From Candidatus Sumerlaeia bacterium (GTDB lineage: Bacteria > Sumerlaeota > Sumerlaeia > SLMS01): DNA of 45,915 bases. Below the pieces are notes generated by a model that saw only the letters and a list, made by a program, of their open reading frames with translations, did no database searches and was not told the DNA's origin. The stretch is taken from contig JBBQYG010000009.1 in the NCBI GenBank assembly GCA_038208905.1, forward strand, positions 1 to 45,915, written 5' to 3'. Positions 5,233 through 17,368 of this stretch are shown here, piece after piece (position 1 is the first letter of the stretch; each line of letters opens with the position of its first letter). The position numbers and the translations under genes are program-made.

Positions 5233-5402
5233 GCGCCGGGCCGTTATTGGCGACCCATCTGGCCGCCGATTTTTTTCACAACTCACATTTACCGAATTTG
5301 TAGTTGACATTGTTGGCCCCCTCCACCGCATGTCTCCTCCCAATGCTTGTGGCTCACTCCGGGCGGCGCGCTGGCGTCCGCCTTTCGCCCCAAGCAGGCG
5401 CT

Positions 5403-5448
5403 CCCGTTCCCGTTCCCGCTGTTAACTCGACCCGTTCCCGCTAGGAGG
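5403..5448 (+). promoter_or_regulatory. CCCG(T/C)T hexamer repeats abutting the ftsZ Shine-Dalgarno (AGGAGG 5443-5448)
   Basis: cccgtt-cccgtt-cccgct (5403-5420) and cccgtt-cccgct (5431-5442) directly before AGGAGG. Confidence 0.55.
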
Positions 5449-5455
5449 ACACGCC

Positions 5456-6961
5456 ATGCCTGACTTCGTGCTCGACCACGAACCCGCCGGATTTGCCCGT
5501 ATCAAGGTTGTTGGTGTCGGTGGCGGCGGCTGTAACGCCGTCGATTCGATGTTCGACCTCGGTCTCCAGAACGTCGAATTCTATGTCATTAACTCGGACT
5601 TGCAGGCGCTCAAGCGCAGCAAGTGTCCCAACCGCATCCAGATCGGGGCCGAGAAGACCCGCGGTCGCGGATGCGGCGCGTCTCCCGCCCTCGGCGAGGA
5701 GTGCATGTTCGACGCCCGCGAGGAAATGATGGAGACCCTTGCCGGGGCCGACATCGTCTTCGTGACGGCGGGCCTTGGCGGCGGCACCGGAACCGGCGCC
5801 GCCCCCGTGATCGCCCAGATCGCCAAGGAAATGGGCATCCTCACCGTGTGCGTCGTCACCAAGCCCTTCAAGTTCGAGGGGCCGCGTCGCCTCAAGGGGG
5901 CCGAGAACGGCCTCGAGAAGATGCGCGACAACTGCGACACCATGATCGTCATCAACAACGAGCGCCTGCTCGAGCACGTCGGCCCCAAGGTTCCCATGAA
6001 GGAAGCCTTCAAGATCGCCGACAACGTCCTCGCCCAGGCCGTTGTTTCCATCAGCGACCTGGTGGCGACGCCGGGCCTGATCAACGTGGACTTCAACGAT
6101 ATCCGCACGATCATGGGCGGCAAGGGCGGCGCCGTGATGGGCGTCGGCGTCGGCAAGGGCGAGAACCGCGCCGCGGAGGCCGTCAAGAAGGCCACAAGCT
6201 CTCCGCTGCTCGACAAGATCGTGATCGACGGCGCCACCGGCGTCCTGATCTGCATCACCGGCGGACCCGACATGACGCTGCAGGAAGTCAGCGAGGCCAC
6301 CCAGATGGTCCACGCGGCGGGCGACCCCGACGCGGAGATCATCTTCGGCGCCGTCATCGACGACTCCATGACCGACCAGATCCGCGTGACGATCATCGCC
6401 ACGGGATTCGCCGAGGACATCCAGCGCCGCAAGATCAACAATGTGGAAGGGGCCGAGGCGTATCCTTCGGCGCCCGCACCCGCGCCGATCCAGCAGCCGC
6501 TGGCCCGCCCCGCGGCCGGCTTCCGCATGGTGTCGTCCACTCCCGTCGCGGAGGTTCAGTCCGAGGACTCAATCGATCATATCTTCGCCCAGGAGGCTGC
6601 CCCCGCTCCCGTCGCGAAGGCCCCCGAGGTCCCCGTGGCCGCGTCCACGCCGGGCCAGCCGTCGCTGCTGCGCCAGACGCTCGAGAAGATGATGTCCGAG
6701 CAGAACGGCGGCGCCCCCGCCGCCGCTGGCCAGCCCGCCATCCGCGTTGCCAAGAGCACCGCGCCAACGAATGGCGGCAGCTCGCACCCCTCCGTTCGCC
6801 CCGCGGGCCCCAGGCCCGTCGAGGCCCACGCCGCCGCGCCGAAGATGAGCATCAGCGAGGCGCTCCCCCAGGTCACGCTGTTCGACCCGGAGCAGGAGAA
6901 GGAGAAGTCCGACTTCGACACCCCCGCCTTCCTGCGCCGCCGCCGCTCGCTGTTCGAGTAA
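5456..6961 (+). CDS. ftsZ: Cell division protein FtsZ
   Basis: IKVVGVGGGGCNAV, tubulin signature GGGTGTG, NVDFND T7 loop, long Pro/Ala linker, C-terminal FDTPAFLRR peptide; strong SD. Confidence 0.98.
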   Translation: MPDFVLDHEPAGFARIKVVGVGGGGCNAVDSMFDLGLQNVEFYVINSDLQALKRSKCPNRIQIGAEKTRGRGCGASPALGEECMFDAREEMMETLAGADIVFVTAGLGGGTGTGAAPVIAQIAKEMGILTVCVVTKPFKFEGPRRLKGAENGLEKMRDNCDTMIVINNERLLEHVGPKVPMKEAFKIADNVLAQAVVSISDLVATPGLINVDFNDIRTIMGGKGGAVMGVGVGKGENRAAEAVKKATSSPLLDKIVIDGATGVLICITGGPDMTLQEVSEATQMVHAAGDPDAEIIFGAVIDDSMTDQIRVTIIATGFAEDIQRRKINNVEGAEAYPSAPAPAPIQQPLARPAAGFRMVSSTPVAEVQSEDSIDHIFAQEAAPAPVAKAPEVPVAASTPGQPSLLRQTLEKMMSEQNGGAPAAAGQPAIRVAKSTAPTNGGSSHPSVRPAGPRPVEAHAAAPKMSISEALPQVTLFDPEQEKEKSDFDTPAFLRRRRSLFE

Positions 6962-8510: not shown

Positions 8511-8576
8511 TTGACATCATACCGCAATCCGAGTCCTTGTTGGGGGGCCGGTGGGGAAATCGCGGGATTCATGGGG
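8511..8576 (+). promoter_or_regulatory. dcw promoter region: TTGACA plus MraZ-type (T/C)GGG direct repeats
   Basis: TTGACA at 8511; TGGGG at 8541, 8552 and 8572 and CGGGA at 8563 (~10-nt period), as in known MraZ operators. No clear -10 identified. Confidence 0.6.
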
Positions 8577-8597
8577 AAGTCGCCCAGAGAGCTTCAA

Positions 8598-9092
8598 ATG
8601 GCTGCGCTACTCAAAGGTTCACACCCACAAACCGTCGACGACCGCGGAAGGCTTGCTATCCCGTTTAAGCTCCTCGAATCCCTGCGGGAGTTGGCCGGGG
8701 CAAAAGAAGGTGAGGATGTGGAAGTTTGTGTCGGCATCTCTGACCGTGGCTGTCTAGCGGTGTTCCCCAAGCCGCTGGCGGAAGAGACCCTCGGCAATGT
8801 TGAGGGCTCGGCAAAGGTTCGCCAGGACTTCTTCAACCTCCTCGCGTCCACCTGCAATTACCTCGATGATCAGGTGCTCGACAAGCAGAATAGGTTCCGG
8901 GTGAGTTCGCTCTACAGCGAGGAGATGGGACTGACGGGCGAAGTTGTGGTGATGGGTAGCGGCTGGTATCTGGAAGTTGTGAGCAAAGCCCAGTGGCGCG
9001 AGATTCTGGCGAAGTCGCTCTCGTCCCGGAATGATCAGAGCGCGAAGCTCAAGGAGTACATGTACCCGGAGGCGAGTGCGGCGGGGAAGTGA
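8598..9092 (+). CDS. mraZ: Division/cell wall cluster transcriptional regulator MraZ
   Basis: Start MAALLKGSH; two SpoVT/AbrB repeats (VDDRGRLAIP, LDKQNRFRV), VVVMGSGWYLEV; first gene of the dcw cluster. Confidence 0.9.
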   Translation: MAALLKGSHPQTVDDRGRLAIPFKLLESLRELAGAKEGEDVEVCVGISDRGCLAVFPKPLAEETLGNVEGSAKVRQDFFNLLASTCNYLDDQVLDKQNRFRVSSLYSEEMGLTGEVVVMGSGWYLEVVSKAQWREILAKSLSSRNDQSAKLKEYMYPEASAAGK

Positions 9093-9177
9093 GATTTGCC
9101 GGACGAGCGCCGGGCCACAAGCCCAGGACGCCACGGCCAGAAGTATCGCGCAAGCGGCGCGGCGAGGTGGCAAGACA

Positions 9178-10149
9178 GTGCGGTATCACGAGCCTGTCAT
9201 GCTGGTGGAAGTCCTCGCGGCGCTCTCCCTTCAGTTTGGGGAGACGGCAGCCGACGGAACTCTTGGTTCCGCGGGCCATGCCCTCCACATCGCCGAACGG
9301 ATCGGCGCAACGGGGCGGCTGCTGGGGTTGGATCGTGATCCGGAGATGCTCCGCGTCGGCGGCGGGCGACTCCGGGAGGCGCTGGGCGAGGACGGACCGG
9401 AGGTGCGGCTTTTCGCGCGGCCCTACGAGGAAATCGGCGCCGCGCTGGCCGAGGCGGGTTGGGGTGGGGCGGACGCGGTGATGCTGGACCTGGGGATCAA
9501 TAGTCTCCAGCTCGAAGACCCGGAGCGCGGCTTCTCGTTCTCCAAGGACGGACCTCTCGAAGGGTTGTTCAACGCAGCGGAAGGAATTCAGACTGTGGGC
9601 GAACTGGTCAACAGCGCGAGCGAAGCGGAACTGACGCGGATCTTGCGCGACTACGCCGACGAGCGCCTCGCCCGCCCGATCGCCCGGCGCATTGTGAACC
9701 ATCGCGCCACGGAGCCGCTTCGCCGCACGTCGGAACTCGCCGCGCTGGTTGCCTCTGTCTATCCGCCCGCGGAGCGCCACGGCCGCATCCACCCCGCGAC
9801 GCGCGCGTTTCAGGCGCTGCGTATCGCCGCCAACGACGAGATGGGCGCGGTCGAGCGCGGTGTGCGCGCGTGCATGGAGTGCCTCGCGCCACTTGGCCGC
9901 CTTGCGGTGATCGGCTTTCATTCCACGGAGTTGCGCATCGTGAAGGGCCTGTTCCGCGAGGCCACGGCGCCGCGCCCGGATCCGTCGAATCCCTACTCGG
10001 CCACAACCACCGAGGGCGTGACGTTCGAGGAAGTTTTCCACGGCTCCATCGAGTGCGGCGAGGAAGAGGCCGCGCGGAACCCGCGCGCCCGGAGCGCAAA
10101 GCTCCGCGCCATCCGCAGGAAGGAGGCGGGCGATGTCGGTATCCGGTGA
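9178..10149 (+). CDS. rsmH: 16S rRNA m4C1402 methyltransferase RsmH (MraW)
   Basis: HEPVML, DGTLGSAGH, DLGINSLQLEDPERGFSF, IHPATRAFQALRIAAN, NPRARSAKLR. GTG start at 9178 is estimated. Confidence 0.95.
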   Translation: MRYHEPVMLVEVLAALSLQFGETAADGTLGSAGHALHIAERIGATGRLLGLDRDPEMLRVGGGRLREALGEDGPEVRLFARPYEEIGAALAEAGWGGADAVMLDLGINSLQLEDPERGFSFSKDGPLEGLFNAAEGIQTVGELVNSASEAELTRILRDYADERLARPIARRIVNHRATEPLRRTSELAALVASVYPPAERHGRIHPATRAFQALRIAANDEMGAVERGVRACMECLAPLGRLAVIGFHSTELRIVKGLFREATAPRPDPSNPYSATTTEGVTFEEVFHGSIECGEEEAARNPRARSAKLRAIRRKEAGDVGIR

Positions 10150-10597
10150 GCATCTGATTGGCGGATCGGGATCCGGCGCGCGCCGCCGCAAGATGCGCGC
10201 GGCGGAGGAGCTTCCTCCCCCGATGATCGGGCTGCGCTTCGTCGCCGTGCTGGTGGTCGTCGGCGGCTGCTTCCTGGCGCTGGGGATGTGGCGCGTTGGG
10301 ATGGTCTTTGCCGCGAGGGATTTCGAGATGGAGGCGAGCCGGTTGCAGGTCCTGGCGGAGCAGCGCCGCGACCGGGCAAAGGGCCTGGCGACGCGCATCA
10401 GCGCCCTGCAGCGCGGAGAGGTGCTGCGCGGCGCGGCGGAGGGCACGCTGGGCATGGCGCCCGCGGAGCCCGGCAGCATGGACACCCTGGATATTTCCGC
10501 CGAGTCGGTGGCGCGCTGGCGCGCCGCGGCCGAGGCCGCGAGAGTAGGAACCGCCATCACGCCCAAGGAGGAGAAGCAAACTCTCGAAGGGGGTTGA
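10133..10597 (+). CDS. ftsL: Cell division protein FtsL-like (single TM + coiled coil)
   Basis: Position between rsmH and ftsI; basic N-terminus, one TM helix, coiled coil, A...LGM motif. Confidence 0.7.
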   Translation: MSVSGEHLIGGSGSGARRRKMRAAEELPPPMIGLRFVAVLVVVGGCFLALGMWRVGMVFAARDFEMEASRLQVLAEQRRDRAKGLATRISALQRGEVLRGAAEGTLGMAPAEPGSMDTLDISAESVARWRAAAEAARVGTAITPKEEKQTLEGG

Positions 10598-10608
10598 AGA
10601 ATGACCCC

Positions 10609-10959
10609 TCTCCGGCGCGGTCAGGCCAGGCATCGGTTTGATGACGCTGCATTCCATCGCTTCGACGCGGAGACTCGACCTCTCCGTCCGACGCCCCCGG
10701 AAGCGGCAGAACTTCCCGAGTCCCGATATTGCTCCACGTGTCCCGCTATCGTTCGCTCCAGCTACACGCATCCCGCATCCTGATCCGCTCCCTGTAAACT
10801 TTGCCGCTTCCGAACCCGTTCCCGTTGAGTTGTCGATTCCCGTTCCCACTGGTTCCGAAGCGATGAAGCGGCGTCCCGATCAACCGAGTGCCCACTTAGC
10901 CTTGCCGGCCTGAGGTTGTTTTGTTGATCGGCGGATGCCTGGCCTGACCGGGCCGGAGA
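10609..10959 (+). ncRNA. Candidate structured RNA / inverted-repeat-bounded element between ftsL and ftsI
   Basis: Nested stems: 10609-10634/10934-10959 (25/26 complementary); 10643-10664/10856-10875; 10876-10884/10923-10931; 10667-10673/10681-10687; 10698-10710/10800-10812. G-U pairs favour the + strand. Confidence 0.55.
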
Positions 10960-11084
10960 AAACACAGAGAGAGCCGTCCACCACCACAGGCGATTTCATA
11001 CCCGTTACAGCTCCAGCCGCTCTGCTCCCCTTCCTGTTCCCGCTCCCCGTTTCCTCCGCCACCCGCTCTCCCCGATTTGCTCCG

Positions 11085-13118
11085 ATGTCGCTCAAGAAAA
11101 CCCACAGACTCCGCGTCGTTCTCCTCGCCGGCATTTTCCTCGGCCTTGCGGGGGCGGTGGGCGCCCGCCTCTACCAATTGCAAGTTGCGGACCATGATCA
11201 CTACGTCCGCCGGGCGCAGGGCCAACAGACCAAGCGCATTGTTATCCAGCCAGAACGCGGCAGCATCGTTGACCGCGCCGGGCACGCGCTCGCCCAGAGC
11301 ACCGGCCGCGTTACTCTCTACGTCAATCCCGCCTTCTCGAAGGGCAGCCGTCTGGCTGGCCGCACGTCGGTCATCGCCGGCGCCATCGCCACGGAGACCA
11401 ACCAGGACGCCGACGCGATCCGCGCGAAACTGGAGGGGAGCGCGACCGTCGCCATCGCGCGGCGCCTCCGGCCAGAGAGCGCCCGCCGGCTTACCGACCT
11501 CCTCGCGTCGGAGGACATCGACAGCCGCCACTACTGGCTCGACCGCGAGTCGATCCGCCTCTATCCGCGCCACCTCGCCGCCGCGGCGATCGGCTTCTGC
11601 CGCCGCGACGCCACTGGCGACAATGAAGGGATCGCGGGCCTCGAGCTCTTCTACAACGAGGAACTGAAGGGGACGCTGGTCGAGGCGCGGACGCGCCGCA
11701 CGGGAATCAGCCAGACGATCCAGCCGTGGGAGCCCGATGACCTGCTCAAGGCCCAGGGCAACACGCTGGTTCTCACCATCGACTCCGGCATTCAGGAGGC
11801 TATGGAGGACACGCTCGCGCGAACCATCGAGCAGTTTCAGGCTGCCTCCGCGGGGGCCATCGTCATGGACGTGCACACCGGCGGCATCATCGCGATGGCA
11901 AGTCTGCCCTCCTTCGACAACAACGCGTTCGGCACCGCGCCCCCGGAAAATTTGCGGAACCGCTTGCTGACGGATCCGCTCGAAACGGGCTCCGTGGTTA
12001 AGTTGTTCACCGCGGCGATGCTTCTCGATCAGGGTCTTGTCTCCCCCGAAACACTCATCGATTGCGAGGGTGGCTTTGCGATCGTCGATGGCCGCCGCCT
12101 TCGGGACTCGCCGGGCCACGTGCTGCACGTGGCTACATTCCGCGAGACGATGCGCTGGTCCTCCAACGTCGGAATCGTCAAGGCGGCACAGGCGCTTGAG
12201 AACGGCCCCTGGTACGATTCGCTGCGCGCGATGAACTTCGGGGCGCCCACGGGAATCGATCTTCCGGGTGAGGGCTCCGGAATCCTCTACCCGCTCGAGC
12301 GCTGGACAAAATTCTCCAGAACTTCGCTACCAATGGGTTACGAAATCGCGATGACGCCGGTGCAGATCACGGCGGCGCTCGCGGCGATGGTGAACGGCGG
12401 GCGATACTTCGAGCCCCACCTCGTCGCGGAGGTCCGCGATCCGCGCGGCAACCTCGTCCGCCGCCACAGCTCCGAGCCCGCCCGCCAGGTGATCCGCCCC
12501 ACCACCAGCGCCATCATGCGCGACCTGATGGAGGACGTGGTTGCCATTGGGACCGGCAAGAAGGCGGGCGTTCCCGGCTATCGCGTGGGCGGAAAAACAG
12601 GAACCACCCGGAAATCCGACATCTTCGACAGGCGAGAGTACATCGCGAGCTTTGGCGGCGCCCTGCCCATGCAGGACCCGCGCGTTGCCGTGTATGTCTA
12701 TATAGACGCTCCCCAAGGCGAGTACTACGCCTCGGTGGTGGCCGCGCCCGCGTTTCAGGAGATCGCCCGAGCCACCGTGCTGCATCTCGGCATCGCGCCG
12801 ACCGAGGAAATCGCGGCCACGCCATCCAAGGCCATGCCGCCGATGCCCATCGCCGTCGGCGCGGAGACGGGGTTGCCGATTCCCGTGGCCGCGGGGCGGA
12901 TGCCCGATCTGCGCGGACTCTCGATGGCCGAGGTTCGCGCCGTACTTCCCCGCGAGGCGCAGCGCGTGCGCCTCCTCGGCAGCGGGTCGCTCACCGACCA
13001 GTATCCCGCCGTTGGGGATGTCGTGAATCAGGACACGGAGTTGGTGCTGCATTTCTCGGACCCCTCGCGGGCCGAGCCGATCGAGGCCGCCGCCGCGGCA
13101 GAAGGAAACTCCCGATGA
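11085..13118 (+). CDS. ftsI: Peptidoglycan D,D-transpeptidase FtsI (PBP3) with C-terminal PASTA domain
   Basis: Start MSLKKTHRLR followed by a TM helix; RGSIVDR; SxxK (GSVVK), SxN (SSN) and KTG motifs; MPDLRGLS PASTA domain. Confidence 0.95.
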   Translation: MSLKKTHRLRVVLLAGIFLGLAGAVGARLYQLQVADHDHYVRRAQGQQTKRIVIQPERGSIVDRAGHALAQSTGRVTLYVNPAFSKGSRLAGRTSVIAGAIATETNQDADAIRAKLEGSATVAIARRLRPESARRLTDLLASEDIDSRHYWLDRESIRLYPRHLAAAAIGFCRRDATGDNEGIAGLELFYNEELKGTLVEARTRRTGISQTIQPWEPDDLLKAQGNTLVLTIDSGIQEAMEDTLARTIEQFQAASAGAIVMDVHTGGIIAMASLPSFDNNAFGTAPPENLRNRLLTDPLETGSVVKLFTAAMLLDQGLVSPETLIDCEGGFAIVDGRRLRDSPGHVLHVATFRETMRWSSNVGIVKAAQALENGPWYDSLRAMNFGAPTGIDLPGEGSGILYPLERWTKFSRTSLPMGYEIAMTPVQITAALAAMVNGGRYFEPHLVAEVRDPRGNLVRRHSSEPARQVIRPTTSAIMRDLMEDVVAIGTGKKAGVPGYRVGGKTGTTRKSDIFDRREYIASFGGALPMQDPRVAVYVYIDAPQGEYYASVVAAPAFQEIARATVLHLGIAPTEEIAATPSKAMPPMPIAVGAETGLPIPVAAGRMPDLRGLSMAEVRAVLPREAQRVRLLGSGSLTDQYPAVGDVVNQDTELVLHFSDPSRAEPIEAAAAAEGNSR

Positions 13119-17260: not shown

Positions 17261-17368
17261 GGAGAAACCGCCCACCCAATCGACATCGAATTTTGCGGAA
17301 GTGGTACCCGCTGAAAGCTCGCTCCCGTTCCCGCTCGTAGTTCCCAGACCACCCGAGAGGTTCCGCCA

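Follow-up and report, generated by a model that had tools for sequence, protein, structure and literature searches.

What fills the one large gap in an otherwise tightly packed division and cell wall (dcw) gene cluster? The question is raised by a stretch of DNA of 45,915 nucleotides (nt) from a Candidatus Sumerlaeia bacterium (contig JBBQYG010000009.1, positions 1 to 45,915, forward strand), which we call the window. Its + strand carries mraZ, rsmH, an ftsL-like gene, a gap, ftsI and then the rest of the cluster, in the order murE, murF, mraY, murD, ftsW, murG, murC, murB, ftsQ and ftsA. From mraZ to ftsA the genes overlap or are separated by about 110 nt or less, the sole large gap being the 487 nt between ftsL and ftsI. 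We found that this gap holds a structured element, which is bounded by a long closing helix, filled with copies of a short motif (GYUCCYG), and present in relatives from most of the class. We are confident that the element represents a genuine, previously undescribed family of structured RNA, and we propose, at roughly even odds (a probability of about 0.5), that it is the hub, with many binding sites, of a circuit that controls division genes after transcription.

The element was first picked out by a reading of the window's letters alone (the sequence-only reading), which proposed five named helices within a gap of about 490 nt between ftsL and ftsI. The gene context was borne out: rsmH and ftsI have their expected Pfam matches (Table 1), and the gap has the length given above; the 154-amino-acid (aa) FtsL-like open reading frame (ORF) has no Pfam match. 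All five helices are present in the minimum free energy (MFE) fold of the + strand of positions 10600-10970, including the closing helix with the 25 of 26 pairs claimed for it and one G-G mismatch. This fold has an energy of -163.6 kcal/mol, against -122.6 +/- 6.0 kcal/mol for 100 dinucleotide-shuffled sequences (z -6.82), none of which folded as well. One detail of the sequence-only reading was not borne out in the form given: it described the wobble pairs as G-U on the + strand, and the closing helix of the window does not contain a single G-U pair.

A DNA similarity search among 40 relatives gave no homologue and three weak matches, one of which was the ftsZ leader of relative G014; homologues were located by synteny instead. 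The resulting family comprises elements of 200-460 nt that occupy the ftsL-ftsI spacer through most of the class Sumerlaeia. The spacer measured 343-550 nt (ftsL stop to ftsI start) at the ten loci of the window's family and 394-729 nt (end of FtsL similarity to ftsI start) at all 22 measurable loci at the order level, and it was of similar size at most class-level loci. Using a local stem search, which replaced RNAduplex on long flanks after the latter gave meaningless whole-length duplexes, we identified long-range helices that share a single recognisable type at 47 of 63 loci, homologous rows being judged by eye. The core of this helix is AAGGCCAGG paired with CCTGGCCTT in the window's own order and TTGACCAGAYCGGC paired with GCCGRTCTGGTCAA in other orders; in family f15 the helix differs in sequence, pairing CTCCACGG with CCGTGGAG (read by eye). 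FtsI proteins encoded across the class at this shared syntenic site are just 33-40% identical. The element is absent from family f14 (three genomes, with ftsL and ftsI about 80-95 nt apart) and from genus g28 (two genomes, with no spacer). Where present, it is a clean marker of synteny and could be used directly to seed a new RNA family. Relative G001 contains two diverged copies of the rsmH-ftsL-element-ftsI block (L028/L036 on contig C8 and L034 on contig C45), the second cut by a contig end, a duplication that is probably a strain mixture or an artefact of binning or assembly.

Alignment of the homologues revealed strong covariation in the closing helix. In a MAFFT alignment of 24 elements from the window's own order, 83.1% of the cells of the 26-pair helix were paired, a level that none of 500 shuffles reached (64.8 +/- 1.1%). 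In that alignment 24 of the 26 pairs change on both sides, with a covariation score of 0.527 versus 0.226 in shuffles, and sliding the partner strand by 1-3 columns left only 35-47% of cells paired; three visibly misaligned rows (G007, G011 and G017) are counted in all of these figures. A second alignment comprised 21 elements from other orders, with L065 (near-identical to L064) and two loci of family f6 excluded and the ends of L067 set by hand. Its 17-pair closing helix was 88.1% paired, with 16 of the 17 pairs changed on both sides, and a second, internal hairpin of nine pairs was 70.6% paired; the whole structure reached 82.2%, compared with 71.7% in shuffles (0 of 500 as high). Covariation in relatives, to which the sequence-only reading had pointed as a check on its proposal, is thus strong in both alignments. 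The other-order helix also carries a strand signal, with 18 G-U versus 3 A-C apposition cells (12 versus 0 in the core), and a strand-symmetric helix search over the 47 loci gave 51 G-U versus 29 A-C; G-U outnumbered A-C in 22 loci, and the reverse held in 8. Because of this G-U bias and the direction of the operon, our reading of these sequences is that the element acts as a sense-strand RNA; the window's own order, taken alone, is not proof of this.

The element matches no known RNA family, as the sequence-only reading had anticipated. Searched against Rfam 15 in E-value mode, positions 10000-11600 of the window gave a single chance match (18 bits, where the gathering score is 80; E 4.2), and the 20 other-order loci gave none at the gathering score. 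On this lack of a match we reject RNase P, tmRNA, 6S RNA, Y RNA, riboswitches and group II introns, in agreement with the absence of RNase P, tmRNA and group II intron signatures already remarked on from the letters. In the window's own genome, a metagenome-assembled genome of 4.24 Mb in 301 contigs that is 93.9% complete, the element is single-copy: we found only the self match and the self-complement of the arms, all other matches having E-values of 0.73 or more, with the proviso that collapsed repeats could escape such an assembly. We also found no conserved ORF. Translated similarity was confined to same-genus pairs, where it occurred in all three frames and with frame switches, which rules out a protein-coding reading; the longest open stretch is shorter than 45 codons in several loci, the interior is poor in A, and open stretches arise by chance. 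The spacing of the motif copies described below is not tied to multiples of three, a further argument against coding. A literature search, covering papers without their supplements, found no published structured RNA in the ftsL-ftsI gap, and no RNA work was apparent in the part of the Sumerlaeota literature covered, judged by titles and abstract openings; we know of no cultured member of this phylum. Together, the fold, the absence of an Rfam match, the single genomic copy and the covariation of the closing helix support the novel structured RNA that had been proposed.

Inside the closing helix, the elements share a repeat. Their interior is G-poor and contains between 1 and 13 sense copies (median 6) of the hexamer GYUCCY, which we read as GYUCCYG and which often stands in tandem. 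The form GTTCCCG was observed 74 times, against 1.5 expected, and occurs in 34 of 42 loci. The flanking G belongs to the unit, as 100 of the 125 TTCCC in the 42 elements are followed by it (80%), and the two variable positions of the motif are both pyrimidines. Copies are most commonly spaced by 6 nt (46 cases), then by 12-14 nt. Their orientation is strongly biased: the ten spacers of the window's family contain 76 sense versus 6 antisense copies of TCCYG, so that the sense strand has 6 CRGGA against 76 TCCYG, with GGA runs on the - strand only. In the low-GC members L097 and L103 the motif is kept as GTTCCTG without C-richness, at 13-23% C. The sequence-only reading had described a C-rich loop enclosed by the 13-bp stem. 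C-rich it is, on the + strand, yet the hexamer repeat within it had gone unnoticed, as had the copy at the tip of the 3' hairpin and the copies in the ftsZ leader. The motif also has apparent likenesses to the 16S rRNA site that RsmH methylates and to the half-sites of ParB/Noc-type boxes; we take them to be coincidences of four to six letters and give them no weight.

Copies of the motif lie in the G-poor stretches, and the 3' hairpin exposes the same or a near motif at its tip. In the window this tip reads GCC-TTGCC-GGC (10899-10909); across the loci it carries a GYUCCYG-type or near motif, GCTTGCCGGC in family f1 and GCTTCCCGGC in family f3, and in family f11 it reads, by eye, GGTTCCCGCC or CGTTCCCGCG. 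At 18 of 23 order-level loci the tip motif lies at the apex of a predicted hairpin of at least eight nested pairs, with stems that differ in sequence, a count made with no shuffle control. RNAalifold predicted 0 pairs on the MAFFT-aligned 3' domains, in which the stems of different sequence stayed unaligned; the support for this hairpin comes from folds of the individual sequences and from reading by eye.

The same motif recurs in front of ftsZ. In 24 of the 25 genomes of the window's order, the ftsZ leader contains GYUCCYG-type motifs, with 1-5 sense copies in the 170 nt upstream of the gene and a total of 81 sense versus 8 antisense copies. The usual layout is a tandem pair 35-55 nt upstream plus one copy 0-4 nt from the Shine-Dalgarno (SD) sequence. 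Throughout this order ftsZ has no linkage to the dcw cluster, as in the window's genome and in relative G012; in at least eight genomes of other orders it lies within the cluster, on the same strand and about 14-15 kb 3' of ftsI. In the window's genome, motif copies also precede ftsI and murD (Table 1), and tandem copies abut the SD of a MerR-family regulator (PF13411) and that of a lipoprotein-like ORF. The MerR-family gene is a possible further member of the control set.

Because the same motif abuts the SD of ftsZ throughout the window's order, where ftsZ stands apart from the cluster, we favour a hub function for the element. The repeats would be putative binding sites for one motif-specific partner, which would also occupy the SD-adjacent sites on ftsZ and, in the window's genome, those of murD, ftsI and the MerR-family gene. 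The many-site RNA, made together with mraZ, rsmH and ftsL, would bind or titrate this putative partner. The partner could be a protein with a preference for pyrimidine-rich single strands, a candidate being one of the KhpA/KhpB type with KH and R3H domains, or it could be SD-like purine tracts pairing with the motif as an anti-SD-like sequence. The balance of FtsZ with the other division and wall-synthesis machinery is largely viewed as a matter of promoters and proteolysis; a multi-site dcw RNA that has a motif in common with the ribosome site of ftsZ would add an RNA layer to division control. It would also supply a defined RNA ligand with which to probe which sequences KH/R3H proteins, or a new RNA binder, recognise.

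One form that such a circuit could take has a precedent. CsrB, RsmY and RsmZ present many copies of one motif in single strands and at hairpin tips, and the regulated mRNAs carry that motif at or next to their SD. The element resembles them in its multi-copy motif and in the presence of that motif beside the ftsZ SD. It differs in that their motif is GGA and ours GYUCCYG, in its position within the dcw cluster, in its closing helix of 17-26 bp, and in that binding here is putative. Furthermore, CsrA (PF02599) was not found in the window's genome, whereas control genomes gave matches. A Csr-like system dedicated to division, in which the dcw-embedded RNA is the sponge or hub for a UUCCCG-binding protein (of the KhpA/KhpB type or a new one) that also sits on SD-adjacent sites of the ftsZ mRNA, is offered tentatively, as a doubtful specification of the hub. 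If true, it would tie ftsZ translation to the level of the mraZ-rsmH-ftsL transcript, a coupling that would compensate for the departure of ftsZ from the operon in the window's order.

Few known RNA-binding proteins are available for such a role. Hfq and TRAP (the TrpBP family), like CsrA, were not found in the window's genome, and the motif is not of the kind that suits these three proteins. KhpA-like and KhpB-like (KH plus R3H) proteins are encoded there and are the sole known global RNA binders that we found. According to the available parts of the sources, KhpA and KhpB bind RNA globally in bacteria that have no Hfq, CsrA or ProQ, KhpB of T. thermophilus binds a C-rich 10-mer in a crystal structure (10.64898/2026.10.12.757534), and the two proteins are tied to the control of elongation and division in pneumococcus (10.1101/435529). 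We regard KhpA and KhpB (EloR/Jag) as candidate partners only: in the literature covered, parts of papers included, we met no dedicated multi-site RNA for them, and their distribution does not track the element.

Several observations weigh against the hub proposal. The strand signal in the window's own order is neutral, with 29 G-U versus 29 A-C over all rows and 15 versus 12 in the core. Five ftsZ leaders from other orders contain 0-1 copies of the motif; since the element is nonetheless present in those orders, the link to ftsZ cannot be its sole role. The ftsI-leader copies are not conserved: within the last 90 nt before ftsI, a sense copy occurs at 9 of the 23 order-level loci and at 3 of the 20 from other orders. 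Tandem hexamer pairs are not enriched genome-wide, with 19 matches versus 55 in a reversed-genome control, so that any regulon rests on the position of copies next to start codons and not on counts; a loosened motif scan of the genome was uninformative, being swamped by coding CTCCTC runs and by 9-nt arrays. The KhpB-like R3H protein is encoded in 70 of 75 genomes of the phylum, lineages lacking the element included, and its distribution is uninformative. The fold scores of 41 homologues do speak for a structured RNA (median z -4.25, with 38 of 41 below -2 at 20 shuffles each), but the element boundaries behind them were chosen by the best helix, a choice that biases the energies downward. Both the partner and the output of the circuit are things that we infer. 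Finally, a size-fractionated soil metatranscriptome yielded one 225-nt contig that matches positions 10658-10880 at 97% identity, from a relative, and none on ftsL or ftsI; DNA runs X1, X2 and X4 cover the whole stretch. Such contigs show neither strand, ends nor level, depth was low, DNA carry-over is possible, and gaps in the coverage of the RNA run do not argue for absence, so this single contig is a weak hint that the element interior accumulates as RNA.

The behaviour of the element's 3' end differs between lineages. A U-rich tail (at least 5 T in 8 nt) directly follows the closing helix at 15 of 20 other-order loci and at 2 of 23 loci of the window's order, and the window has none. In the other orders the U-tailed closing helix probably also acts as a terminator or attenuator of the ftsL transcript; in the window, the element is most likely read through into ftsI. 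A simple scan found no promoter or terminator at the element borders. Many loci contain a GTCAA motif 19-236 nt before ftsI. In family f7 (L071, L077, L083, L087, L089 and L099) it takes the conserved form TA(G/T)AGTCAA, 48-97 nt before ftsI and 3' of the U-tailed element, and the matching motif in the window's order reads GACCGTCAA. The TAnAGT that precedes GTCAA in family f7 looks to us like a -10 box, and the longer motif resembles a -10 box plus start site; ftsI may have its own promoter there. In the U-tailed lineages, then, the ftsL transcript may end at the element and ftsI be transcribed from a new start.

A comparison with TRAP is instructive here. In the trp leader of Bacillus, regular short repeats lie beside a helix and a U-tract, and a multi-subunit binder decides whether the terminator forms. 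The element is similar in that its short repeats are likewise regular, at a period of 5-6 nt, and in that 15 of the 20 other-order elements have the U-rich tail. It differs in that TrpBP was not found in the window's genome, in that its hexamer has a UCC core, and in that its 'terminator' would be a long-range helix closing 170-420 nt, and in that the window's own order mostly lacks the tail (2 of 23 loci).

The alternatives to a hub begin with a purely RNA-RNA mechanism, a possibility that we consider unlikely. The repeats would be anti-SD-like sequences that pair with purine-rich SD regions in cis (ftsZ, murD and ftsI) and in trans, as a multi-site antisense or sponge, and no protein would be needed. 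The pyrimidines at both variable positions fit this idea well: every variant can pair with G, as C-G or U-G, and the common complement is SD-like. That the motif occurs on a hairpin tip as well as in single strands also fits. In folds of 24 ftsZ leaders the SD was predicted to be paired with a mean probability of 0.81, and 55% of that pairing went to YUCCY motifs. These folds had no shuffle control, however, any C-rich leader would pair with a purine tract, and the share of SD pairing that goes to motifs ranges from 0.00 to 1.00 among leaders. Each contact would amount to merely 4-5 bp, the copy that abuts the SD is too near to fold back onto it, and the G that follows 80% of TTCCC is unnecessary for SD pairing. 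A published parallel exists in the Firmicutes: LhrC uses three UCCC sites, in loops and a single strand, on the G-rich tract before a start codon, and LhrC, RNAIII and RsaE all present redundant C-rich sites in loops or single strands that are complementary to a G-rich SD (PMC4132741, available part). Those RNAs are short, independently transcribed and have 1-3 sites, whereas the element is 200-460 nt long, embedded in an operon, has a median of six sites, belongs to another phylum, and has its motif also inside the target leaders.

A Rho-dependent attenuator is a distinctly unlikely explanation. The G-poor, C-rich untranslated interior would act as a Rho utilization (rut) site that limits transcription from ftsL into ftsI, with the repeats supplying YC dinucleotides. 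Rho is encoded in the genome, and the spacer is a 487-nt untranslated stretch within an operon. The best 80-nt windows of 43 elements contain a median of 32 C and 17 G, and in the window's genome the C-G excess of 22 places the element in the top 1.4% of genome windows. What is conserved, however, is a heptamer that contains G and not C-richness as such, as the low-GC loci L097 and L103 demonstrate. A rut site requires neither a covarying closing helix nor a hairpin tipped with the motif, and the copy beside the ftsZ SD has no place in the model.

It is very unlikely that the element works as DNA, whether as an array of protein sites (for MraZ, for example), as template-strand G-quadruplexes, or as an inverted repeat. 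The complement of the motif does have a GGGA core in common with four G-rich boxes 5' of mraZ (8544-8577), tandem copies do give - strand G3 tracts with 3-nt loops, and the neutral balance of G-U and A-C in the window's own order would suit a DNA feature. But copies are spaced by 6 and then 12-14 nt and not by one helical turn, and in 76 of 258 motif copies a U would interrupt the G3 tract. The copies lie on the sense strand, within transcribed leaders or intra-operon gaps, and the covarying helix of 17-26 bp, with its 18 G-U versus 3 A-C in other orders, points to RNA.

Processive antitermination of the kind performed by the eps-associated RNA (EAR), by which a structured RNA would let RNA polymerase read through the dcw cluster of about 15 kb, is a slim prospect. 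EAR, too, is conserved and structured, and it lies between genes near the start of a long operon for the cell envelope (PMC7858274, available part). Nevertheless, the element has no Rfam match in sequence or structure to EAR or any other known family, and the U-rich tail of the 15 other-order loci looks like an end and not a read-through device. Antitermination also leaves the repeats and the ftsZ-leader copies unexplained; repeats and U-tail are features for which EAR is not known in the part of the literature available.

An antisense small RNA is scarcely credible. The - strand of the element also folds well (z -5.35) and would carry CRGGA repeats, as expected of a GGA-rich sponge of the CsrB/RsmZ type, but the genome yielded no CsrA for such a sponge, the G-U bias in other orders favours the + strand, no - strand promoter-like site was found between the element and ftsI, and the ftsZ-leader copies lie on the sense strand, beside the SD. 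To a miniature inverted-repeat transposable element (MITE), another selfish repeat or a functionless spacer we give almost no credence: the terminal inverted repeats are long and the genome does have separate intergenic 9-nt TTCCCG arrays, but the single genomic copy removes the MITE alternative that the sequence-only reading had kept, no target-site duplication was seen flanking the arms, the same ftsL-ftsI site is used in all carrying loci across a class of such diverged FtsI proteins, and the helix is kept by compensatory changes.

The features of the window are collected in Table 1.

Table 1. Positions of the element, its parts, the motif copies and the neighbouring genes in the window.
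Feature	Position	Strand	Remarks
ftsZ-leader motif	5400-5443	+	three tandem hexamers at 5400-5418 plus a copy 2 nt before SD AGGAGG; ATG 5456
ftsZ	5456-6961	+	upstream of the dcw cluster; - strand glycosyltransferase gene in between
mraZ	ATG 8599	+
rsmH	9031-10149	+	PF01795
FtsL-like membrane ORF, 154 aa	10133-10597	+	TGA stop 10595-10597
SD-like AAGGAGG	10565-10571	+	8 codons before the ftsL stop
Small hairpin GGGGT/ACCCC	10589-10609	+	directly 5' of the closing helix; read by eye
Closing helix, 5' arm	10609-10634	+	pairs with 10934-10959 at 25/26 positions
Second helix, 5' side	10643-10664	+	in MFE and centroid folds
Short hairpin gcggaga/tctccgt	10667-10687	+	within paired regions of the MFE fold
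13-bp stem	10698-10710 with 10800-10812	+	in MFE fold; encloses the G-poor motif-bearing loop
TCCYG copies within the 13-bp-stem loop (10698-10812)	10714, 10721, 10741, 10771, 10778	+
Second motif-bearing stretch	10813-10855	+	TCCYG at 10820 and 10838; further copy at 10874
Second helix, 3' side	10856-10875	+	partner of 10643-10664
3' hairpin	10876-10931	+	outer stem 10876-10884 with 10923-10931; in MFE fold
Closing helix, 3' arm	10934-10959	+	partner of 10609-10634; single G-G mismatch
ftsI-leader motif copies	11024-11048	+	several, 40-60 nt before ftsI ATG 11085
ftsI	ATG 11085	+	PF00905
mraY-murD gap motif	17321-17350	+	20-45 nt before murD ATG 17369

Two small features recur at the 5' border of the element. 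The AAGGAGG near the end of ftsL, or a one-off variant of it, overlaps the ftsL stop or shortly precedes it in the spacers of the window's family and order (by eye, uncounted), and it is found at or just past the end of ftsL in most loci, low-GC relatives included (by eye). At L075, a locus from another order, it is located 3' of the ftsL stop. Conservation at the nucleotide level, once beyond the stop codon, suggests that the sequence functions as RNA rather than through its codons. In the place of the window's small hairpin, directly 5' of the closing helix, family members have a hairpin of different sequence, for example GGGAGCC/GGCTCCC or GGGAATC/GATTCCC (by eye, uncounted).

Further observations concern the neighbouring genes. 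The start of mraZ is probably ATG 8599 and not the TTG 8310 of the ORF list. The four G-rich boxes (GGGG/GGGA) at 8544-8577 follow an exact 10-nt period and lie 20-55 nt 5' of this start, a layout that we take to be that of the usual MraZ operator. In loci L108-L132 a conserved promoter-like sequence, TTGACAGTGTTC, precedes the ftsZ start codon by about 110-140 nt. The MerR-family regulator mentioned above is encoded at L138 (contig C5 of the window's genome, 14200-15200) by an ORF at 255-725 on the - strand, which is 156 aa long and has four hexamers in its leader, ending at the SD.

Finally, the window's genome contains intergenic tandem arrays of a 9-nt unit that contains TTCCCG, with up to 16 copies, which form a repeat family separate from the hexamer. 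They lie at C37:23955-24058, C149:7214-7314, C15:11732-11905, C19:37164-37305, C260:190-277 and C20:26877-26958, and at about ten more places. In front of such an array there is often a G-rich array of the complementary unit in inverted orientation, with which it would fold into a very long hairpin. An identical 200-nt insert is common to two of the arrays, both located at contig ends.

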